The notes: generated by a model from the letters alone, not told the origin. A DNA stretch of 36,014 nucleotides from an uncultured Candidatus Saccharibacteria bacterium (GCA_964434715.1 CAYSWC010000001.1:101037-137050); one strand, 5' to 3'. Numbered from the stretch's first letter, positions 6,310-35,938 are shown. Numbers and translations: made by a program.

Positions 6310-8244
6310 ATGAAAAATAACCGAAGAATATTCGCGTTTCAAAATAAGCTCTACTATTCACTCAACCGCTATCTTAACTCTGAACAAGAGAACGCCGAAA
6401 CCGCTAGAGAGATTGCCGAAGGCTATAAGAAACTCTGGCCGTTTTTTAAAGATATTCCGACCGCGCCCCAAACAATAGGCGCGCCTTTTTTGCGTCTTGC
6501 TGATTATCAACATACTCCCTATCGCCAAACACTAACCAAGTTGGCTGACTTTGCACGAACCAAACTAGCGCCCTATCTAAGAACCTTTTTTATTCACGGC
6601 AGTCTGGCGACTATGGATTTTGTTCCGGGATTTAGCGATCTTGACACGCTCCTGGTTCTTAAGCAGGAAATTTGTATTAATTCCCAAAGATTGGAGAATC
6701 TCCGGCAAAAAATACAGGCGGCAAAAAAAATGTTAAGGGTGGTGGATCCGCTTGAACATCATGGATTTATTTTCTCTAATGAGCAAAATCTTAATTATTA
6801 TCCCCAACACTATCTGCCGATAACGGTTTTGCGGTATGCGAAGGTTTTAGGCGGGACCCGGTCCCTGACTTTCAATCTCCGCGATTCTTCGGAAGAGGCA
6901 AAAGAAAATTTTTATCACTACTACAATATCTTTAAAGAAATTGCAAAGACTGGCGTTATTAAAAACAAACCGGGGGGGCCGGAATACCAGCTCAAATGGT
7001 TTGTGAGCATGCTCCTTCTGATGCCCAGTTTATATCTCCAGGCCAAGGGGATTTATCTTTATAAAAAATATTCTTTTGATCTCGTCAGGCATCCCTTCCT
7101 GGATAAATTACAAAATGCCAGAAAAAATTTTAAAAATGCCGAAAAGATATTGGGCAGAAATTATTTTAAGCAAGCGCTTGATATGCTTCAGGAATGGCGC
7201 CGAGATCTTCTGGCTTATGAGAAAAAAAGAAAATTCATAAATAATCCTAAAAAACTGCCGCTCGTGATCTATCAAAAAGCGCGCCGGGAATTAATTGGGC
7301 ATTTCCGTAAAAATTCCGACGTTTTGGCTCTCTACGAATATGGTTCAGTCAGCGCGCCGGGGATCAGCGATTTAGATCTGATTTTGGTAACCAGAGAAAA
7401 ATTAAAAAATAAATTTATTTATCCTGCCGGACCGAATATCGACAGAGTCGCCAAGGGGACGCTGATGGTAATGCCAAAAAATCTTTTCGCTGATATTAAA
7501 ATCTTTGACGCCGTCAGATTAAAAAAAGTTTTCGGGGAAAGGATTAAAATTAAAGAACTAACCAAGGTAGCTCTGAAATTACGATTGGTGGCGAGCGTTA
7601 TTGACTGGCTGCCGGAACGTTTAATTCGCGTTACTTCAATGTTGCATCGCAATCCTTTGGATATCCAGTACGCCCTCCGTTATCTCCGTTCTTTCGCCTA
7701 CTCCGTCGAAAACGCGCGCAAGCTCATAAATTTCCACGGCTATCCGGAATTTATGAGCAACCTGCGGGAGATGAGAAAAAATTGGCAACCGCAAAGAAAA
7801 AAAGAGCTCTTGGCGCTGATCAAGCGGGCAGTCTATTTGGGTTATGAAGCGCTTTCCGCCTTTACGGAAAAATACGCAAAAGCTTGGCCGGGCGCGGCAG
7901 GCGAACTTACTCTCTTCAGCGGCCAAAAAATCATATTCACCAACCAGAGAGAAAAAATTGACCCGGATTGGGCTATGGCCCAGTCAACACCGGCATTAAC
8001 CAAGGTTTTTGTGAGCGCCAAGCTGCTGCCGCATTTCTTGCTTTATAGCAGGCAATCCGGGACGCTGGCGGCAGAAATGAAAAATAAACTCGCCGCCCGC
8101 GGCCGGGGAATTATTAAGAACGCTGCTTACGAACTTTTTTTGAAAAAGAAATTCGGTTTAGCTACAAAGTGTGCAGAATTTTTAAGGCAGAATGGATTTA
8201 AGTCCGGCTTATACCGGTTCGGCTTCTACTTTAAACCGAAGTAG
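6310..8244 (+). CDS. Uncharacterised protein with two tandem pol-beta-superfamily (minimal) nucleotidyltransferase motifs
   Basis: 644 aa with an ATG start. HGSLATMDFVPGFSDLDTLLVL lies at nt 6595-6660 and YGSVSAPGISDLDLILVT at nt 7339-7392. Both fit hG[GS]-x(9-13)-D-h-D-h, and each is followed by a helical region. It is the only plus-strand gene within about 21 kb and is Lys-rich and AT-rich. Confidence 0.6.
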   Translation: MKNNRRIFAFQNKLYYSLNRYLNSEQENAETAREIAEGYKKLWPFFKDIPTAPQTIGAPFLRLADYQHTPYRQTLTKLADFARTKLAPYLRTFFIHGSLATMDFVPGFSDLDTLLVLKQEICINSQRLENLRQKIQAAKKMLRVVDPLEHHGFIFSNEQNLNYYPQHYLPITVLRYAKVLGGTRSLTFNLRDSSEEAKENFYHYYNIFKEIAKTGVIKNKPGGPEYQLKWFVSMLLLMPSLYLQAKGIYLYKKYSFDLVRHPFLDKLQNARKNFKNAEKILGRNYFKQALDMLQEWRRDLLAYEKKRKFINNPKKLPLVIYQKARRELIGHFRKNSDVLALYEYGSVSAPGISDLDLILVTREKLKNKFIYPAGPNIDRVAKGTLMVMPKNLFADIKIFDAVRLKKVFGERIKIKELTKVALKLRLVASVIDWLPERLIRVTSMLHRNPLDIQYALRYLRSFAYSVENARKLINFHGYPEFMSNLREMRKNWQPQRKKELLALIKRAVYLGYEALSAFTEKYAKAWPGAAGELTLFSGQKIIFTNQREKIDPDWAMAQSTPALTKVFVSAKLLPHFLLYSRQSGTLAAEMKNKLAARGRGIIKNAAYELFLKKKFGLATKCAEFLRQNGFKSGLYRFGFYFKPK

Positions 8245-25045: not shown

Positions 25046-26121
25046 GATTGTTTTAGCTTTTGTAAATAATCATCTAAAGTTGGCCAATATCTAAAAAAGG
25101 CATTCTGTTCTTTAATTATTTTTTCTCTGGCGATTTTGTTGACAATTAAATCTTCTAAAACTTCGGTTAGGACTTTTATGTTTCCGACTGGAATTACTTT
25201 CCCGATAGCTACTCCCACATCAGTCATTACTACTGGCAGGTCGGCGGCTGCCGCCTCTACCGCCGTGAGTCCATAACCTTCGTAATTAGAGGTGAGTAGC
25301 AATAAATCAGCGGTTTTGTAATAAGAAATCAAATCACTGCTCCAAGGCTCAAATTTTACACTATTCTGAAGTTCTAAGTTGTAAGTTGTAAGTTGTAAGT
25401 TTTTTATTTCCGGCCCATCTCCTACAATCAGTAATAAAGGATTTTTGATATTTGATATCGCTTCTATCACCATTCCAATATTTTTCTCGCGTGTCAAACG
25501 CGAAGCCATCAAAATGATAAAATCATGATTTGGATATTTTTTATGAAGATCTGTCTTGACGGGGGTGTTTTTGATTTTTTGAACATCAACAAAAATGGGA
25601 AGAATTGTAATTTTTGATCTTTGATCCCTGATCTTTGATCGCAAAGAGTCAGCGATTCTTTGCGAGACGACGCGGATGCCGTCGGCTTTGGGAATAAGCC
25701 ATTTGGCTAGAAGTACGCGCAGTTTATTTTTAATTGACTCGCGCCAAAAATACGGGCTTAAAAAATCAGTGTGAATCTGGATTTGAAGCGGTAGCTGAAA
25801 CTTGCGCTTAAGCAAATAACCGACCAAGCCGGTTTCGAAAGGGTCCTGGGCAGTAATAACTGACAACTTACGACTAACGACTAACGGCTTGCTAATTTTA
25901 TAGGCGTCCCGAAAATAAAAAAATTTGAATTTGCTGTTGGTAGGATAAATAAAAACATTATCCGTCAAAGTTGTTGGTTGTGAGTTGTTGGTTGTGAGTT
26001 TGTTTGTGTAAACAATAATATGCAACTCATCTGCTATGGTGCCGTAGTCTTTCATCCGTTCGCGCGCGGCCGAGTCGGTTTTAAAAATATTTTGATCGGT
26101 TGATAGCATTAAAACTCTCAT
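25012..26121 (-). CDS. GT4-family glycosyltransferase carrying four in-frame heptamer-repeat patches
   Basis: 369 aa. Motifs are ILMASRLTREKN, IVGDGPE and SNYEGYGLTAVEAAAADLPVVMTDVG. Its 3' end overlaps the next gene by 34 nt. Confidence 0.85.
   Translation of the reverse strand: MRVLMLSTDQNIFKTDSAARERMKDYGTIADELHIIVYTNKLTTNNSQPTTLTDNVFIYPTNSKFKFFYFRDAYKISKPLVVSRKLSVITAQDPFETGLVGYLLKRKFQLPLQIQIHTDFLSPYFWRESIKNKLRVLLAKWLIPKADGIRVVSQRIADSLRSKIRDQRSKITILPIFVDVQKIKNTPVKTDLHKKYPNHDFIILMASRLTREKNIGMVIEAISNIKNPLLLIVGDGPEIKNLQLTTYNLELQNSVKFEPWSSDLISYYKTADLLLLTSNYEGYGLTAVEAAAADLPVVMTDVGVAIGKVIPVGNIKVLTEVLEDLIVNKIAREKIIKEQNAFFRYWPTLDDYLQKLKQSWQNCCLSPKR
25367..25401. repeat. Heptanucleotide tandem repeat (NNaagtt x5; the last three units are perfect gtaagtt)
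   Basis: The sequence reads tgaagtt ctaagtt gtaagtt gtaagtt gtaagtt. It is in frame in GT4 25012-26121 (peptide NLQLTTYNLELQN). Confidence 0.85.
25614..25641. repeat. Heptanucleotide tandem repeat (ttgatcN x4, imperfect)
   Basis: The sequence reads ttgatct ttgatcc ctgatct ttgatcg. It is in frame (peptide RSKIRDQRSKI). Confidence 0.8.
25857..25891. repeat. Heptanucleotide-periodic repeat (core cgactaa x2 perfect)
   Basis: The sequence reads taactga caactta cgactaa cgactaa cggcttg. It is in frame (peptide KPLVVSRKLSV). Confidence 0.7.
25970..26008. repeat. 14-nt (2 x 7) tandem repeat gttgttggttgtga x2 plus a degenerate tail
   Basis: 25970-25983 and 25984-25997 are identical and are followed by gtttgtttgtg. 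It is in frame (peptide TNKLTTNNSQPTTL). Confidence 0.85.
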
Positions 26122-28427
26122 AAGATATTCTCGCTAAACAAATCGACTAATTGATTCGTAGTTTTTTCTATAGAAAATTCTTTAGCTCTAGCTTGGGCGT
26201 TTATAGAAAGCTTTTCTCTAAATTTTTGGTCGGAAGTAATTTTATTCACTGCCTTCAAAAACTCTTCTTTGTTGTCCGGCTCGATTAAAACGCCGTCTCT
26301 GTTATTGACGATTATTTCTGAAAGATTGCCTATACGCGTGGCAATCACAGGCATGCCGGCATTCATAGCCTCCACCACTTGGAAGGAGAAGCTTTCAAAA
26401 GATGTATTCAGGACAAAGATAGCGGCGTTTTTTAAATATTCCAAAAGCTCTCCTCGGGGAACTGCACCGACTAATTTAATTCGATCATTAACTCTTAACT
26501 TTTCACTTTTAACTTTTAACTTCTCTCTTTCCGGCCCGTCGCCAATTATCACCAAATGCCAGTCGGGCAAATCAACCATAAACTCTATAAGCTTATCAAA
26601 ACCTTTCCATGGCACTAGACGACCAGCAGAAACAATTCTTTTAACATCTGGCTGGGGTTTCCATTGAATATATCCGCCATAACCACCTATATTTAAATCT
26701 ACGCCGTTATAAACTGCCTTTACTTTTTCTGGTTTTCTCACCCACCCCCCCACTAACTTCTTAAAATAATGACTCGGTGTAATTATCAGCCGAGCTTGGT
26801 TTGCCACCCCACGCTGAATAAATCTTAAAAGCTCCGTTTTAGGGCCGTATTTTTTACTTTGAAAATCGTCAATTGGATCTTTAACACCAAATCTTTGGGC
26901 GGCCTGCTCCCAAGCGTAATCGCCGGCAATACGAATAAGAAATGGTTTCCCGGCTGTTTTGGCGGCCAGCATAGCAGGCAAACCTACACTCACGGGATCC
27001 TGCGCATAAACTAGATCGCTGCGGAAAGCCAAATACAATGCTTTGAAAAAGTAAACCAGGTGCCTTAGGCCTTTGGGCCAGATTTTCACCGCTCGGAACG
27101 GTAAAACCGAAACCAGAAATCCCCGTCTGACTAATTCGGTTTCGACAAGATGCGTGTAAGTAGCCGGCCCGCCGACTTCAGGAGGATACAGTCCGGTGGC
27201 AATCAAAATTCGGACTAATGGCTTATGACTAATAACTAATGACTTAAAAACTTTTCCCATTCTTTGAGCGACGCTGTCCCAAGAGTAATTTTCCAAGACC
27301 AGTTTTCTGCCGTTTTCTCCAAGCTTTTTCCTAAGGCCATCATTTTCCATAAGCGAAGAAATTTTATCGGCAAGATCTTTAGAGTCGTCAGCCATCGCAA
27401 AAAGTCCGGTTGTGCCATCTCTTAAAAAATCAGATATACCGCCTACGGCCGTACCAATAACAGGGAGTCCGGCGACCATTGCCTCTAGAAACGAACTGCC
27501 CAAGCCCTCGGAGCGCGAAGGCCGGACAAAAATATCGGCTTGAGATAAATATGCCGGGATCTTATCAGCCGGCACCTGTCCAAGAAATTCAATTCTGTCT
27601 TCAACTCTCAAATCTTTTACTAATTGTTTGAGTTTTTGTTCTTCGGGACCGCCGCCTACAATCAGAAGTTGGAAGTCAGAGGTCGGAGGTTGGATTTTCT
27701 TTAATTCCGCTACGGCTTGAATTAAAATATCAACGCCGTTTTTGTAAACCAATCTTGAGGTCGTAATAATAATTGCTTCTTGTTTATTTTTTTCGTATTT
27801 TCGCCCGCCTCGCCTCGACGAGCTTGACGAGTCGAGGCTTAGTACTTTTTCGTATTTCGTAGTATCAACTCCATTAGGCACCACTTCAATCGGGCACCTC
27901 GCGCCATGCCGTCTCGCAAAATCAGCCAAATAATTGCTAATCGTCTGAATATAATCGGCTTTCCGGAAAATCAGGCGCCAGAAAGGATAAAAAAGTCCGA
28001 CTCGATCCAAAATAAATTCTTCCGAATCCCCTTCTTGTAAAGTGAGGAGCAACGGAACTTTAGGGTGCCGCAGTTTAAATAAGAGAGCCGTGAGCCCGCC
28101 GTAGGCGGCCATTACCGCCCAAATAGCACTAAAGGGGGTTTGTCTATGAATTTTTTCCGCTTTTCTCCAAGCCCGGAAAATATAAAAAAACTTAGTCAAA
28201 CCTTGTCCGTAAAAATCGCCGCTCTTGCCTCGCCCAAGACGGAAGATGCTTAAATTTTCATCAACCTCTTCAAAATCAGACCACCGAGAATGAAATTTAT
28301 GAGTAAAGACTGAAAATCGGTAGTTTGGCAGCCTTTTGATTATCTCACGGAGCGCAATCTCGGCTCCGCCTTCAAAAGGACTATAAGCTAAAGTAAAAAC
28401 GCCGATTTGGGGAACTTTTTCGGTCAT
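26118..28427 (-). CDS. Fusion of two complete GT4 glycosyltransferase modules
   Basis: 769 aa. Module 1 has SRSEGLGSSFLEAMVAGLPVIGTAVGG. Module 2 starts at VRILIATGLYPPEVGGPATY, a typical GT4 N-terminus, and has TSFESFSFQVVEAMNAGMPVIATRIG. The junction lies at about residues 394-405. Confidence 0.85.
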   Translation of the reverse strand: MTEKVPQIGVFTLAYSPFEGGAEIALREIIKRLPNYRFSVFTHKFHSRWSDFEEVDENLSIFRLGRGKSGDFYGQGLTKFFYIFRAWRKAEKIHRQTPFSAIWAVMAAYGGLTALLFKLRHPKVPLLLTLQEGDSEEFILDRVGLFYPFWRLIFRKADYIQTISNYLADFARRHGARCPIEVVPNGVDTTKYEKVLSLDSSSSSRRGGRKYEKNKQEAIIITTSRLVYKNGVDILIQAVAELKKIQPPTSDFQLLIVGGGPEEQKLKQLVKDLRVEDRIEFLGQVPADKIPAYLSQADIFVRPSRSEGLGSSFLEAMVAGLPVIGTAVGGISDFLRDGTTGLFAMADDSKDLADKISSLMENDGLRKKLGENGRKLVLENYSWDSVAQRMGKVFKSLVISHKPLVRILIATGLYPPEVGGPATYTHLVETELVRRGFLVSVLPFRAVKIWPKGLRHLVYFFKALYLAFRSDLVYAQDPVSVGLPAMLAAKTAGKPFLIRIAGDYAWEQAAQRFGVKDPIDDFQSKKYGPKTELLRFIQRGVANQARLIITPSHYFKKLVGGWVRKPEKVKAVYNGVDLNIGGYGGYIQWKPQPDVKRIVSAGRLVPWKGFDKLIEFMVDLPDWHLVIIGDGPEREKLKVKSEKLRVNDRIKLVGAVPRGELLEYLKNAAIFVLNTSFESFSFQVVEAMNAGMPVIATRIGNLSEIIVNNRDGVLIEPDNKEEFLKAVNKITSDQKFREKLSINAQARAKEFSIEKTTNQLVDLFSENIL
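26494..26528. repeat. Heptanucleotide tandem repeat (tttaact-like x5)
   Basis: The sequence reads cttaact tttcact tttaact tttaact tctctct. It is in frame in module 2 of the fused GT4 (peptide EKLKVKSEKLRV). Confidence 0.8.
27213..27247. repeat. Heptanucleotide tandem repeat (gactaat-like x5) forming the linker between the two fused GT4 modules
   Basis: The sequence reads gactaat ggcttat gactaat aactaat gacttaa. It encodes KSLVISHKPLV at the module junction. Confidence 0.8.
27664..27698. repeat. Heptanucleotide-periodic repeat (agaagtt ggaagtc agaggtc ggaggtt ggatttt)
   Basis: It is in frame (peptide QPPTSDFQLL). It shares the 12-mer aagtcagaggtc (27673-27684) with 28803-28814 on the same DNA strand, although the host genes are on opposite strands. 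Confidence 0.8.
27789..27857. repeat. 57-nt in-frame insertion-like unit: 12-nt direct repeats flanking a 45-nt GC-rich hairpin segment
   Basis: tttttcgtattt occurs at 27789-27800 and again at 27846-27857. The intervening 45 nt have 29 G+C and contain the 8-bp inverted repeat gcctcgac (27812-27819) / gtcgaggc (27831-27838). The protein reads KYEK-VLSLDSSSSSRRGGR-KYEK. Confidence 0.75.
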
Positions 28428-28446
28428 AGGATAGTTTTTATTCTAA

Positions 28447-29610
28447 ATGTCCAAAGCAAAGAAAAAAATATTATTTGTTATCACTCAAGGCAACTGGGGC
28501 GGAGCCCAGCGTTATGTTTTTGATCTCGCAACCAACTTAAACCAAGAGAAATTTGAGACTCAGGTGGCTTTCGGAAAAGCTCACCGAGGTGAGTTAATCG
28601 CTAGACTTGAAACGTTGGGAAAACCAGTCTATTCGCTTAAATATCTCAACCGTTCTTGGAATCCTTTTACCAACTGCCTCTTTATTGTGGAACTTTACCG
28701 GCTGATTAAAAAGTTATCACCGGATATTGTGCATTTCAATAGCACCAATGCCGGCGTCTTCGGCCCTTTAGCCGTTAAAATATATAATTTGTCAAAGGTC
28801 AAAAGTCAGAGGTCAAAAGTAGTCTATACCGCCCATGGCTTCGCCTTTAACGAGCCGGGCTGGCGGCGCCGAGCCGTTTTTATCTTAGCGGAGAAATTAG
28901 GAAGTTTTTTCCGGGATTTAACCATTTGCGTTTCCCAATTCGATCATGATTCAGCCCTCCGCCGCGGCATTGAGTATTCGAATAAGATGGCGATTGTTTA
29001 CAACGGCATTGATGCAAATAATTTTAAGACTTTACCGCGGGCCGAAGCACGCAAACTTTTCCCGTTAGTACCGGAAAACGCGCTGCTCATTGGTGTTATT
29101 AGCCAATTCTATAAAAATAAAGGTTTGCAATATCTTATCGAAGCAGCTCGCCCAATTGTAGAAACTCGCCCCAATGTTTTTTTCGCCATTATGGGCGGCG
29201 GTCCGGAACAAAAAAATCTGGAATTAAAAATTAAGAATTATGGACTGACAAATAAATTTTTTGTTCTGCCCTATCAGGAAAACGGCCGCAAGTATTTGAG
29301 CGCTTTTGATATTATTGCCGCGCCGTCAGTCAAAGAGGGTCTCCCCTATTTTTTGCTGGAGGCGGCTTTGGCTAAAAAAGCGATTGTGAGCACGACTGCT
29401 GGCGGCATTCCGGAAATCGTAAGGCACGGAGAAACCGGTCTTATTGTTGAACCGCATAAACCGCTCGCCTTAGCGGAAGCTTCAGAAAAATTCTTAAGCT
29501 CGGCAGCTTTAAGGAAAACCTTGGGAGAAAATGCTTATAACTTCGTGAGTCAGAATTTTCTGCTTGCTAAGATGATTGATGCAACGGCAAAACTTTATCG
29601 AGAAATCTAG
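28447..29610 (+). CDS. GT4-family glycosyltransferase
   Basis: 387 aa. Motifs are KILFVITQGNWGGAQRY, GVISQFYKNKG and PSVKEGLPYFLLEAALAKKAIVSTTAGGIPE. Confidence 0.85.
   Translation: MSKAKKKILFVITQGNWGGAQRYVFDLATNLNQEKFETQVAFGKAHRGELIARLETLGKPVYSLKYLNRSWNPFTNCLFIVELYRLIKKLSPDIVHFNSTNAGVFGPLAVKIYNLSKVKSQRSKVVYTAHGFAFNEPGWRRRAVFILAEKLGSFFRDLTICVSQFDHDSALRRGIEYSNKMAIVYNGIDANNFKTLPRAEARKLFPLVPENALLIGVISQFYKNKGLQYLIEAARPIVETRPNVFFAIMGGGPEQKNLELKIKNYGLTNKFFVLPYQENGRKYLSAFDIIAAPSVKEGLPYFLLEAALAKKAIVSTTAGGIPEIVRHGETGLIVEPHKPLALAEASEKFLSSAALRKTLGENAYNFVSQNFLLAKMIDATAKLYREI
28791..28825. repeat. Heptanucleotide tandem repeat (gtcaRaR x4 plus a degenerate unit)
   Basis: The sequence reads gtcaaag gtcaaaa gtcagag gtcaaaa gtagtct. 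It is in frame in the plus-strand GT4 (peptide SKVKSQRSKVV). Confidence 0.85.
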
Positions 29611-34279: not shown

Positions 34280-34581
34280 AATTTATTTTTGTGACTTTTT
34301 AACTAATTAATTTGTTAATGTTTATGACCTTTTTAATTGGGGAAAGCATCGACCGTAATTCGGCTTTCCTTTTTTGTTTCTTATGATTTTTGTATTCCTT
34401 CGACGGGCTTAGGAAATAAGTTACTGTCTGAGCAAAGTCGAAGACATACTTTTTATTTAGGGAAGGAGCTATCGACCTTACCGCTTTTCCCTCCTAAATC
34501 CTCGTGAGGCAAGAACTTAGGAGGAAATTGGTGTCGCTCTGCCGTAGGCAAAGAAAATCCCCGCTTAGAAGCGAGGCCAGG

Positions 34582-34703
34582 GGAGTAATCGCTAATAATG
34601 CTAATGCGGTTCGAAATAATGCGAATAAAATATTAGCATTATTTTGTCTCCCCTCGGGAGATCTCCCGTAGGGAGACCCATTCGCATTATTAGCGATTAC
34701 TCC
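34582..34703. repeat. Nested inverted-repeat element: a possible structured RNA in the surface-protein leader, or a MITE-like palindromic element
   Basis: The outer inverted repeat is a perfect 20 bp: ggagtaatcgctaataatgc (34582-34601) pairs with gcattattagcgattactcc (34684-34703), plus 4 more bp after one mismatch. Inside are a 9-bp hairpin (34614-34622 / 34636-34644) and two tandem 6-bp hairpins, tctccc-ctc-gggaga and tctccc-gta-gggaga (34647-34676). Confidence 0.7.
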
Positions 34704-34842
34704 GGACTGCTTAGCCTCACACTAAGCAATTACGATTATATCAAAGAATCCAAAAACCGGTGCGGGAACGCCTGTGAATAACTCGGGGAAAACTTACTTT
34801 CTTAAATCTTATAACGAAGCTAAGTTGAGTTTATTACAACTT

Positions 34843-34863
34843 GTCCCTAGTCCCTAGTCCCTA
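34843..34863. repeat. Perfect heptanucleotide tandem repeat gtcccta x3 (intergenic)
   Basis: It lies 9-29 nt downstream of the stop of the winged-helix gene and shows that the heptamer repeats are not confined to coding DNA. Confidence 0.9.
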
Positions 34864-34871
34864 TGGGCCTA

Positions 34872-35672
34872 TTAGATAACCCTTATCTTATAAAGCGTAG
34901 CTCGCCCCCCGCCAGATCGCTCAAGAAGGCCTTGATTACACAGGCGTTGGAGGTCATATCTTATGGTCCTGCCGCTAAAATCAGGAAAAGAAGCCACAAT
35001 TTCCCTAAAAGGCACTGGTTTATTGCCGGACTCACGGATTCGCTCCACAATTGCCGATTCCCGGTTTGCCGCATTAGCCCAATCTTCTAAAAGGTTTTTC
35101 TCGGCAACCAGCTTATTTACAACCTCATCAATTCCGACGCTTCGGTCGGAATCCCGACCTTTTGGCGTCGGGATTGCCGGATTATTGCCCGATTCTTTTG
35201 CAGGATTATTGCCGGATTTATCCTGATCCTGTCGAAGGATTGCAGGATTATTTCCGGATTCTTTTGCCGGTTCTTTGCCGACTTTGCCTGATTTAGCGAC
35301 TTTCCTTGCCGGTTTTACCGCCTCAAAAAGTGTTGCTGGCCTGGAAAAAATTGATTCAATACTTGGTATTTTCTCCAAATCAGGCAATGACAATTCGGCA
35401 ATTTGCCGGATTGCCGCATTTAAATTGCCTAATTCCTGAAGCAAAATATCGGCATTGACTGGCTCAATTTCATAGATAATCCTGCCGAATTTAATCATGC
35501 CCTCCAAGGTTGCCGAGGTCTTTGAAAATGCTGCAAAATCGCGCGTTGATACCTGCTCTAAGAGCTCAAAAGCCAAATCTTCCAGTTTGTGCCGGAATCT
35601 CGGACGCCGGGCATAGACCGATATTTTAATAAGAGCCAAACTGATTTCCTGGGCTTTTTGGTCAGCAAACAT
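34872..35672 (-). CDS. DNA-binding protein with a C-terminal DeoR-like winged-helix domain, a helical N-terminal domain and an internal ESGNNPA repeat linker
   Basis: 266 aa. The C-terminus is FREIVASFPDFSGRTIRYDLQRLCNQGLLERSGGGRATLYKI (S-x-x-TIR-x-DL-x-x-L ... GGG pattern). The middle is PAKESGNNPAILRQDQDKSGNNPAKESGNNPAI. No SD is visible, and TATGAT lies just upstream of the ATG. Confidence 0.62.
   Translation of the reverse strand: MFADQKAQEISLALIKISVYARRPRFRHKLEDLAFELLEQVSTRDFAAFSKTSATLEGMIKFGRIIYEIEPVNADILLQELGNLNAAIRQIAELSLPDLEKIPSIESIFSRPATLFEAVKPARKVAKSGKVGKEPAKESGNNPAILRQDQDKSGNNPAKESGNNPAIPTPKGRDSDRSVGIDEVVNKLVAEKNLLEDWANAANRESAIVERIRESGNKPVPFREIVASFPDFSGRTIRYDLQRLCNQGLLERSGGGRATLYKIRVI
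35171..35267. repeat. 31-nt direct repeat (3 mismatches) plus a partial middle copy inside the winged-helix gene
   Basis: The first copy is ggattgccggattattgcccgattcttttgc (35171-35201) and the second is ggattgcaggattatttccggattcttttgc (35237-35267), 66 nt apart. A partial copy lies at 35202-35219. They encode the ESGNNPA repeats. ttgcaggatt is the reverse complement of aatcctgcaa at 35794-35803. Confidence 0.8.
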
Positions 35673-35760: not shown

Positions 35761-35790
35761 CACCCTACGGGTGATCTCCCGAAGGGAGAC
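35761..35790. repeat. GC-rich double-hairpin module flanked by 10-nt direct repeats
   Basis: It consists of caccc-tac-gggtg followed by tctccc-gaa-gggaga. aaaaatcctg occurs at 35750-35759 and again at 35791-35800. The 18-mer gatctcccgaagggagac matches 34660-34677 (gatctcccgtagggagac) with one mismatch. Confidence 0.75.
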
Positions 35791-35805: not shown

Positions 35806-35938
35806 AGGTAGCACAAAGTTACATGAGGTTGCGCGATGTTACAAGAGGTTACGAGAGGTTACGGGAAACCTCCTGCAACCTTGTGTAACCTTAATGTAAC
35901 CACATGTAACCTCCTATAACCTAAACCTAATGTAACCT
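35806..35938. promoter_or_regulatory. Phased array of GGTTAC-like repeats: six direct units with exact 10-nt spacing followed by seven inverted units (an imperfect palindrome of about 130 nt)
   Basis: The forward units start at 35806, 35816, 35826, 35836, 35846 and 35856 (aggtagc, aagttac, aggttgc, atgttac, aggttac, aggttac). The reverse units (gcaacc, gtaacc x3, ataacc, aaacc, gtaacc) start at 35875, 35885, 35896, 35906, 35916, 35923 and 35932. The central 6-bp stem is gaggtt/aacctc. The array lies 134-266 nt upstream of the winged-helix gene start. Confidence 0.7.

Follow-up and report, generated by a model that had tools for sequence, protein, structure and literature searches.

The window analyzed here, a 36,014-nucleotide (nt) stretch of DNA from an uncultured Candidatus Saccharibacteria bacterium (GCA_964434715.1 CAYSWC010000001.1:101037-137050), is a surface-glycan cluster encoding NeuB, DegT, GT2, a formyltransferase, epimerases, two YfhO-like proteins, two TagF-like proteins, and five GT4 open reading frames (ORFs). 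The nearest homologs belong to metagenome-assembled genomes (MAGs) of Patescibacteria/Parcubacteria. Inside the adjacent GT4 glycosyltransferase genes gtC, gtD and gtE lie patches of tandem 7-nt units (heptamers) that are translated in frame with the surrounding enzyme. We propose, at a probability somewhat better than even (roughly 0.55), that these patches are heptanucleotide simple-sequence repeats (SSRs) of the kind described as short tandemly repeated repetitive sequences (STRRs) or long SSRs, arising from a lineage-specific mutational regime whose products are filtered by selection. The GT4 enzymes are best read as permissive hosts, with no sign of a dedicated surface-sugar switch.

Heptamer arrays in three glycosyltransferase genes

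We detected arrays with Tandem Repeats Finder (TRF) and with a self-match scan over periods 4-21, for which 40 dinucleotide-preserving shuffles of the window served as the control. The scan found eight patches at period 7 and six at period 14, with 0-3 at the remaining periods, compared to ~0.1-0.2 patches per period in the shuffled window and none in any shuffle at the strictest threshold. One of the 11 arrays of the window is intergenic and the rest are inside genes (Table 1). A preliminary description of this DNA had listed eight 7-nt patches and the intergenic array; all were recovered at the same places, although patch 7 proved too degenerate for the TRF threshold, and the list lacked two weak patches, one in gtC and one in gtE. 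The low-complexity peptides quoted there were all found in the ORF translations.

All three host ORFs score above the curated Pfam cut-offs and thus belong to GT4: gtC matches Glycos_transf_1 at 1.3e-26 as well as Glyco_transf_4, gtE matches Glycos_transf_1 at 1.7e-35, and gtD contains two Glycos_transf_1 and two Glyco_transf_4 stretches. The earlier count of three adjacent GT4 genes holds for the ORFs, but the GT4 modules number four, since gtD is a fusion of two, D1 (residues 1-392) and D2 (residues 393-769). D1 and D2 are separate genes in the related locus L002, and their fusion occurs in 10 ORFs, the window's own and nine from related loci. In the protein collection, gtC had no exact match and no relative at least 90% identical, the nearest being 61% identical.

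An AlphaFold2 model of gtC (predicted local distance difference test score, pLDDT, of 92) predicts a GT-B fold with alternating strand-helix elements. According to this model, patch 1 would encode a complete surface helix, 239-248, patch 2 the end of helix 154-163 and then loop 164-169, and patch 3 a helix end with the following loop; patch 4 would fall almost wholly within loop 38-49 (pLDDT ~70). The prediction thus speaks against the earlier statement that every patch sits in a loop or linker.

The interdomain hot spot of gtD D1 holds another feature of its own. At 27789-27857, perfect 12-nt direct repeats of TTTTTCGTATTT, 57 nt apart, surround a GC-rich segment, and the whole is read in frame as KYEK-VLSLDSSSSSRRGGR-KYEK. 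Heptamer arrays occupy the same permissive site in orthologs, and the segment resembles a different kind of in-frame insertion or duplication.

Table 1 Heptamer arrays of the window and the genes that host them.
Feature	Coordinates	Strand	Repeat evidence	Peptide, position and remarks
gtC, GT4 glycosyltransferase gene, 369 aa	25012-26121	-		hosts patches 1-4 and one weak patch
Patch 1, (AAGTTGT)x4.7	25369-25401		TRF period 7, 96% matches	coding strand ACAACTT; LQLTTYNLELQ; gtC residues 241-251, helix after GDGPE (hot spot E)
Weak patch, (GATATTT)x2.7	25440-25458		TRF score 31 and period scan	gtC residues 222-228 (hot spot D)
Patch 2, (TTTGATC)x4	25613-25640		TRF period 7, 4.0 copies, 80%	RSKIRDQRSK; gtC residues 161-170, interdomain region (hot spot C)
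Patch 3, (ACTAACG)x3-4	25866-25886 (TRF); 25858-25886 (period scan)		TRF period 7, 3.0 copies, 92%	PLVVSRKLSV; gtC residues 79-88 (hot spot B)
Patch 4, (AGTTGTTGGTTGTG)x2.3, two alternating heptamers	25969-26000		TRF period 14 at 100%; 72% at period 7	TTNNSQPTT; gtC residues 41-51 (hot spot A)
gtD, fused double GT4 gene, 769 aa	26118-28427	-		hosts patches 5-7
Patch 5, (TTAACTT)x5	26488-26522		TRF period 7, 5.0 copies, 89%	coding strand AAGTTAA with AGTGAA interruption; EKLKVKSEKLRV; D2 helix after GDGPE
Patch 6, (GACTAATAACTAAT)x2.3	27213-27244		TRF period 14, 2.3 copies, 83%	KSLVISHKPLV; linker joining D1 to D2
Patch 7, degenerate (RGARGTY)x5	27664-27698		~5/7 identity between successive units (direct reading); below TRF threshold	PPTSDFQL; D1 loop before the LLIVGGGPE strand
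gtE, GT4 glycosyltransferase gene, 387 aa	28447-29610	+		hosts patch 8 and one weak patch
Patch 8, (GTCAAAG/GTCAAAA)x4	28791-28820		TRF period 7/14, 80-93% (93% at period 14)	SKVKSQRSKV; gtE residues 115-125
Weak patch, (AATTAAA)x2.7	29222-29240		TRF score 31	LELKIKN; gtE helix after GGGPE, homologous to hot spot E
Intergenic perfect array, (GTCCCTA)x3	34843-34863		TRF 100%	9 nt downstream of the stop codon of a DeoR-like gene

Recurrence, reading frame and copy number in orthologous loci

We extended the analysis to 80 orthologous loci (1.19 Mb in total), where the scan gave 214 patches at period 7, 177 at period 14, 91 at period 21, and 3-27 at all other periods. Of the 218 arrays, 189 lie in GT4 genes (404 kb), 8 in neighbouring genes (737 kb) and 21 in non-coding DNA (80 kb); the densities in these GT4-centred loci are 4.7 per 10 kb in GT4 genes, 2.6 between genes and 0.11 in neighbouring genes. 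Across 81 aligned gtC genes (the 80 orthologs and the window's own), 96 arrays are restricted to six sites: residues 40-54 (15 arrays), 80-89 (18), 160-169 (16), ~225 (2), 240-249 (40), and the C-terminus (5). Five GT4 paralog families carry arrays at homologous positions of the fold, namely the helix after GxGPE, the interdomain region, the loop before the LLIVG strand, and the D1/D2 junction. The individual patches of the window recur accordingly: hot spot D bears arrays in two orthologs, the array type of patch 5 is found at the homologous position in further paralogs and genomes, junction arrays like patch 6 are present in L001, L003 and L005, and clear arrays occupy D1 residues 240-250, the position of patch 7, in orthologs. 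For gtE, seven ortholog arrays lie at residues 110-129, around patch 8, and 11 at the helix of the weak patch.

What recurs at these positions is the periodicity of the DNA, as the preliminary description had argued when it proposed that the DNA and not the peptide is kept. Orthologs with 45-66% protein identity have period-7 DNA at the same protein positions but with other units. In the gtC orthologs, the low-complexity peptides decode as heptamers, such as NYQLPITNYQ from (AATTACC)n and TTNNQQPTT from (ACAACCA)n. In some ortholog pairs the unit has been wholly replaced; in pairs that share a unit, the array DNA is 91-100% identical, compared to ~70% for the whole gene and ~52% for third codon positions. 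Selection on the peptide alone is ruled out by this identity, which exceeds the synonymous-site expectation, and by the 7-nt period, because peptide selection cannot yield a 7-nt period in DNA. We also reject an assembly artefact, given that reads and typical k-mers exceed the arrays in length and that the arrays recur at homologous sites in MAGs from many studies and in one complete genome. The suggestion of a dispersed element at tolerant sites came close with respect to the sites, but a single element is not what we observe, with 103 distinct canonical units among the 218 arrays.

Array load is a property of the genome or lineage. Loci with more arrays in gtC also tend to have a higher array density in their other GT4 genes (Spearman 0.51, p = 3e-6), and counts per locus are overdispersed (chi-square 251 on 79 degrees of freedom), with 25 of the 80 loci lacking arrays altogether; no correlation with GC content was found across the 80 loci. 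The three GT4 genes of the window belong to an array-rich genome. Two arrays share an identical unit ~3x as often when they come from one locus as when they come from different loci, a rise too modest for a genome-specific template, which we reject as the source of the units.

Array length peaks at ~31 nt (4.4 units), both in and between genes, and shows no geometric decay. Ortholog alignments, proposed in the preliminary description as a way to reveal insertions, gave a divided answer. At hot spots C and E the segment has the same length with or without an array (E: 23 residues, interquartile range 23-23), whereas at hot spot B the orthologs fall into length classes of 18 and 25 residues, i.e., seven residues or three units apart. 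Apparent insertions within gtC of L031, L033, L042, L043 and L058 were discarded: the long tblastn matches were merged hits to the upstream paralog.

Since 7 leaves a remainder of 1 on division by 3, a run of three units passes through every reading frame, and the encoded peptide has a 7-residue period. An array whose unit holds a stop in one frame therefore requires an interrupting substitution. Such a stop is present in one cyclic frame of 80 of the 189 consensus units in GT4 genes, compared to 53% expected for composition-matched random heptamers, and direct reading located the interrupting substitution in L001 7639-7671 and in patch 5, whose unit without the AGTGAA interruption would yield an in-frame TAA.

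All 189 GT4-gene arrays keep the frame, and a tblastn scan of the 80 loci for changes of frame found two GT4 frameshifts, neither of them at an array. In ten protein clusters with relatives at least 90% identical, we found no differences in unit number, and the one split gene among these clusters is broken at a poly-A run. When the flanks of one perfect array (L010 7818-7849) were used in a metagenome scan, the single match had an identical length and was uninformative. The results on frame and unit number bear on a proposal of the preliminary description, that the arrays are contingency loci in which the gain or loss of one unit would frameshift a GT4 gene and so reversibly switch the surface glycan. 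The arrays do consist of frame-shifting 7-nt SSR units inside ORFs; as in known phase-variable glycosyltransferases, the unit is not a multiple of three and lies in surface-glycan genes, several arrays contain 4-5 perfect units, and GT4 genes are the enriched hosts. However, in addition to the uniform frame and the lack of unit-number differences among the relatives at least 90% identical, the arrays are short, with frequent interruptions, segment length is fixed at hot spots C and E, and several arrays per gene are not the usual design of a switch. The hosts, moreover, are not limited to dispensable surface genes but include TsaD, class I aminoacyl-tRNA synthetases, Mur ligases, UvrD, MnmA and KsgA (described below); in essential genes, switching off would be lethal. 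We consider contingency loci very unlikely.

Relatives of gtC include a natural module swap. P0148 and P0149, compared with P0020, have ~250 almost identical C-terminal residues and ~130 unrelated N-terminal residues, with the breakpoint at a conserved HTDFLSPYFW motif, which is evidence of N-domain exchange by recombination among these GT4 enzymes. The arrays had been put forward as handles for such exchange, short stretches common to paralogs that would permit in-frame shuffling of GT4 modules. It fits this idea that the same unit types occur in different paralogs of one genome, that an array holds all three frames so that any register could restore the frame, that arrays form the linker of the D1-D2 fusion, and that a module-swapped GT4 exists at all. 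Yet this sole chimera has the conserved motif, with no array, at its breakpoint, stretches of just 25-35 nt whose units differ would serve homologous recombination poorly, and arrays also reside in single-copy housekeeping genes, so that a role as recombination handles appears extremely improbable. Another gtC homolog, P0032 (537 aa), has a PD-(D/E)XK nuclease domain (PF13366) listed alongside its GT4 domains and is either a fusion or a mis-called gene.

On the coding strand the arrays are 45% A and 11% G, and their peptides are rich in K, L, S, N and Q. A 12-mer, AAGTCAGAGGTC, is common to patches 7 and 8; as first described, it has exactly two copies in the window, at 27673 and 28803, both on the + strand but in oppositely oriented genes, and it renders the two divergent mRNAs complementary over 12 nt. 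The shuffles gave 0.15 matches to it with one mismatch allowed. One explanation for such features is a role at the RNA or DNA level, with the unstructured A-rich heptamer tracts as putative platforms for single-strand binders of low sequence specificity that cover ~7 nt per monomer, e.g., cold-shock proteins; in a variant, the arrays could pair with one another or with small RNAs. Both mechanisms would tune the stability or translation of host mRNAs. Consistent with it are the conservation of DNA beyond peptide need in several ortholog pairs, the strong strand bias relative to transcription, the characteristic length of ~4-5 units, the mRNA complementarity, the proposal that STRRs act in transcript stability or translational coupling (PMC2670836), and the binding of heptamer repeats by CspB, one protein per heptamer (PMC4679880). 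The units are highly diverse, however, many arrays are degenerate or missing in functional orthologs (25 of the 80 loci have none), the hosts are functionally unrelated, and selection for hydrophilic peptides explains the strand bias equally well. We judge this role to be quite unlikely.

Arrays in other genes and lineages and their probable origin

A gene-blind search with a 26-nt AATTGRA-type pattern matched more than 120 loci, mostly in many lineages of the candidate phyla radiation (CPR). Among 126 such sites, non-GT4 ORFs of 150 aa or longer account for 86 and GT4-like ORFs for 7. Scanning 87 host ORFs yielded 116 Pfam families, including class I aminoacyl-tRNA synthetases, TsaD, FemAB, UvrD, Mur ligases, MnmA, KsgA, UvrC and Fmt; in TsaD, the class I tRNA synthetases, the Mur ligases and UvrD the arrays sit mid-protein. 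Array-bearing genomes carry 9.9 arrays per 10 kb between genes, 3.0 in GT4 genes and 0.91 in other ORFs, a gradient as expected from mutation and purifying selection. The emphasis of the preliminary description on glycan genes thus needs to be qualified: in these genomes GT4 genes are ~3-5-fold enriched over other genes, and ~3-fold among the host ORFs, but they are not the exclusive hosts.

In TsaD, five genes have an array at one site directly before LLVSGGHT, one of them in the opposite orientation. In the TsaD compared with the solved TsaD 8iey_A, the array is a clean insertion of seven residues (21 nt), and the native sequence of the site, GAATTTCCAATT, contains AATT twice, 7 nt apart, a pair that could serve as an array seed. 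The TsaD gene L217:3756-4913, from the same MAG as L011, has a 7-residue FSISNFQ insertion and an 11-residue insertion, GNYKLQNTNSK, that resembles a second heptamer array; ~30 extra residues separate the two parts of this protein that align to 8iey_A.

The unit array (AATTACC)x3 was likewise found at more than 120 loci, mostly in filamentous cyanobacteria, where it is largely intergenic (102 of 126), and it is read in frame as NYQLPIT in proteins of Chloroflexi, Stahlbacteria, Falkowbacteria and cyanobacteria. Among the intergenic arrays of the orthologous loci, four adjacent ones at L056 17906-18025 have the units CCAAGCA, CCAAAAT, TTTGGAA and TTTCGAA; the middle two are roughly reverse complements and form a potential hairpin, as described for cyanobacterial STRRs.

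This distribution raises the question of a dedicated or mobile mechanism that would place blocks of ~4-5 heptamers at favoured targets, with no slippage in place. Such a mechanism could be templated or enzyme-driven, or consist of a tiny mobile element, and may be common to or exchanged among cyanobacteria, Chloroflexi, Beggiatoaceae and Patescibacteria. It would accommodate the size peak at ~31 nt within and between genes, identical arrays with dissimilar flanks in diverged orthologs, the recurrence of the same units in distant phyla, the one TsaD site filled in both orientations, the excess of identical units within a locus, and the genome-level array load; horizontal spread has also been inferred for the TAACTGA repeats, with 'no mechanism evident' (MacGregor, PMC4679880). 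Against it stand the more than 100 unit types, the lack of insertion at GT4 sites C and E, the native seed visible at the TsaD site, array ends that fade into degenerate units without sharp boundaries, and the lack of a candidate enzyme among the window genes. In the sequences read, with array boundaries not analysed systematically, we saw neither terminal repeats nor target duplications, and the features of a miniature mobile element, like a Rickettsia palindromic element (RPE) or a miniature inverted-repeat transposable element (MITE), did not appear there either, with differing units and no inverted termini. We regard such a mechanism as unlikely. The same doubt attaches to its more specific form, a heptamer-array generator present in some Patescibacteria, filamentous cyanobacteria and some Chloroflexi that would write ~30-nt blocks, into essential genes as well.

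We instead favor the SSR/STRR reading introduced at the outset, in which a mutational regime in 7-nt register would be active in some Patescibacteria lineages and absent from others. The arrays have head-to-tail 7-nt units above both chance and other periods, many different units, and their highest density in non-coding DNA of array-bearing genomes. Misalignment in 7-nt register during replication or repair, at short direct repeats 7 nt apart, would produce tandem copies and then hold neighbouring units alike, with conversion-like homogenisation where the length stays constant. For this step we draw on the seeds, on the three-unit quantisation, and on the account of Mrazek 2007 given in PMC4679880. 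Selection would then act as a filter, with arrays accumulating freely in non-coding DNA and only frame-keeping states surviving in genes, either a net gain of three units (21 nt, 7 residues) or recoding of a segment at the same length. The A-rich, G-poor coding strand and the stop content of the consensus units would bear the marks of this selection. Survival would be expected only at surface loops, linkers and exposed helices that accept a K/L/S/N/Q-rich peptide, and in GT4 enzymes at the helix after GxGPE, the interdomain linker and the N-domain loops. That GT4 genes have the highest array density among the genes sampled would follow from their several permissive sites and their multicopy state. 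The arrays would thus be passengers that lengthen or recode loops and now and then fuse neighbouring genes, with no regulated switch.

Several observations weigh against this reading. Copy-number polymorphism, the usual hallmark of slippage, was not seen, arrays being identical in relatives at least 90% identical. Hot spots C and E are periodic without net insertion, which would require the conversion-like homogenisation; array length is peaked and not geometrically decaying; and GT4 genes in the GT4-centred sample are about as laden with arrays as non-coding DNA, which tolerance alone explains only loosely. TsaD arrays of L217 and L274 match at 32/32 nt within dissimilar flanks, and gtC arrays of the diverged L006 and L027 match at 59/62 nt; identical arrays in diverged orthologs could reflect constraint on DNA or RNA, or transfer of the arrays. 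The mutational step itself, the 7-nt preference included, is one that we infer. The peaked length, the array identity, the periodicity of site E without insertion and the 7-nt preference therefore leave room for a generator or for a role at the RNA or DNA level.

An SSR whose unit length is not divisible by three would be expected to disappear from genes or to work as an on/off switch, and the arrays described here do neither: genes throughout a bacterial radiation commonly contain them, invariably in frame and at set positions of the fold, with essential enzymes among the hosts. If this holds genome-wide, they would be a mutational route to 7-residue loop insertions, recoded surface helices and fusion linkers in the proteins of streamlined CPR genomes. 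If a generator were instead responsible, these tiny genomes would possess a systematic source of new loops, linkers and gene fusions, with three-unit states kept by selection and arrays conserved at the DNA level. The link between CPR genomes and the 7-bp STRRs of cyanobacteria provides a second, much smaller background in which to seek the cause of the 7-nt preference. For annotation, low-complexity peptides in CPR glycosyltransferases should not be taken as functional motifs or phase-variation sites.

Other features of the window lie outside the GT4 genes. A non-coding region at 34380-34870, between the DeoR-like gene and the gene for a 1272-aa surface protein with a peptidoglycan-binding domain, folds very strongly, and the intergenic GTCCCTA array sits at its 5' edge (minus strand). 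The minus strand of this region has a minimum free energy of -181 kcal/mol (z = -8.5 compared to 100 shuffles), with a long, nearly perfect hairpin at ~34581-34703 around two small TCTCCC...GGGAGA hairpins. Rfam and tRNA scans of the window gave no match at gathering thresholds, this region included, and it may be a candidate structured RNA or leader of an undescribed kind. The DeoR helix-turn-helix gene itself (34872-35672, minus strand) has 11-nt-period DNA repeats at 35173-35280, which encode ESGNNPA / KSGNNPA motifs in a low-complexity central region. Near the window end, 35818-35924 holds two 10-nt-period arrays, ~4 copies of GAGGTTACGA followed by ~4 copies of TGTAACCTAA, whose cores GGTTAC and GTAACC are reverse-complementary and suggest an iteron-like or hairpin-forming structure; just upstream, at ~35766-35790, a TCTCCCGAAGGGAGA hairpin resembles the hairpins at 34650-34676. 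Finally, the gene at 6310-8244, alone on the + strand among minus-strand genes of the glycan cluster, encodes a 644-aa protein with only sub-threshold matches to a Pol-beta-type nucleotidyltransferase and an adenylate-cyclase N-terminal domain.

Comparison with known repeat systems

The preliminary description named no described class for the arrays, but STRRs, the heptamers of Beggiatoaceae and heptanucleotide long SSRs are all on record (PMC2670836, PMC4679880). The STRRs of filamentous and heterocystous cyanobacteria are 'usually made up of 7 bp repeats' and have been assigned no function (PMC2670836). They resemble the arrays described here in their tandem 7-bp units, the many units per genome and their lineage-specific occurrence (PMC2670836), as well as in a modal array of ~4 units and in identical units such as AATTACC in both groups; like them, they can lie in a functional gene, that of RNase P RNA, according to the citation of Vioque 1997 in PMC4748335. 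In contrast, the cyanobacterial arrays are mostly intergenic (as in the sample above) and have a long tail of up to 35 units, whereas those of the window mostly lie in frame within protein genes, are capped at ~5 units and keep to conserved positions of the protein; they also come from another phylum, one whose genomes are very small.

The TAACTGA repeats of marine Beggiatoaceae, cyanobacteria and Bacteroidetes are also direct repeats of a heptamer, in 2-6 copies (MacGregor 2015, PMC4679880), with occasional in-frame copies in the stop-free orientation, read as the peptide LSVISYQ, that were argued to survive only where the protein tolerates them (PMC4679880). Patches 3 and 6 of the window, and L004, have AGTTATC/AGTCATT-like units related to the reverse TAACTGA unit. 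The TAACTGA repeats differ in having one favoured unit, placed mostly directly upstream of start codons, and in having ORF copies chiefly at the ends of proteins. The arrays of our loci instead comprise more than 100 units and occupy internal conserved sites, a helix of the GT-B fold among them.

For long SSRs, the work of Mrazek, Guo and Shah 2007, as far as it is reported in PMC4679880, found heptanucleotide units to be the most abundant among units of 5-11 nt and proposed polymerase slippage, 7 nt being perhaps the stretch contacted by the polymerase. The same report describes a sporadic phylogenetic distribution, as we see here, and names units that are multiples of three as the likeliest to lie in coding regions. 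In our loci, by contrast, genes commonly carry a unit not divisible by three, which would be viable through three-unit quantisation.

Heptanucleotide SSRs are on record in Haemophilus and Neisseria (PMC2651432, PMC8262952). The phase-variable loci of the host-adapted pathogens Haemophilus, Neisseria and Campylobacter share with the window SSRs that are not multiples of three inside surface-glycan transferase genes. Neisseria pglE is a heptanucleotide example of such a phase-variable SSR. Unlike those loci, the arrays here showed neither off-phase alleles nor copy-number variation, are short and interrupted, occur several per gene, and are carried by essential genes as well. Rickettsia palindromic elements, which are ~100-150 nt long, palindromic and conserved in sequence, are another case of DNA-level sequences that lie in frame in unrelated genes, housekeeping genes among them, at tolerant surface sites; the arrays here are instead 20-35-nt tandem repeats with a variable unit and no palindrome. 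Borg tandem repeats within ORFs are described as having unit lengths divisible by three, whereas the 7-nt unit here is read in all three frames. As fast-evolving repeats that add low-complexity segments (disordered regions) to proteins, those of Borgs are otherwise similar (PMC9879509).

In the literature searched, we found no paper joining heptanucleotide repeats with Patescibacteria or CPR. The repeat class is a known one, and what appears to be undescribed is how pervasively CPR genes hold such arrays, in frame, quantised in three units and at conserved protein positions.

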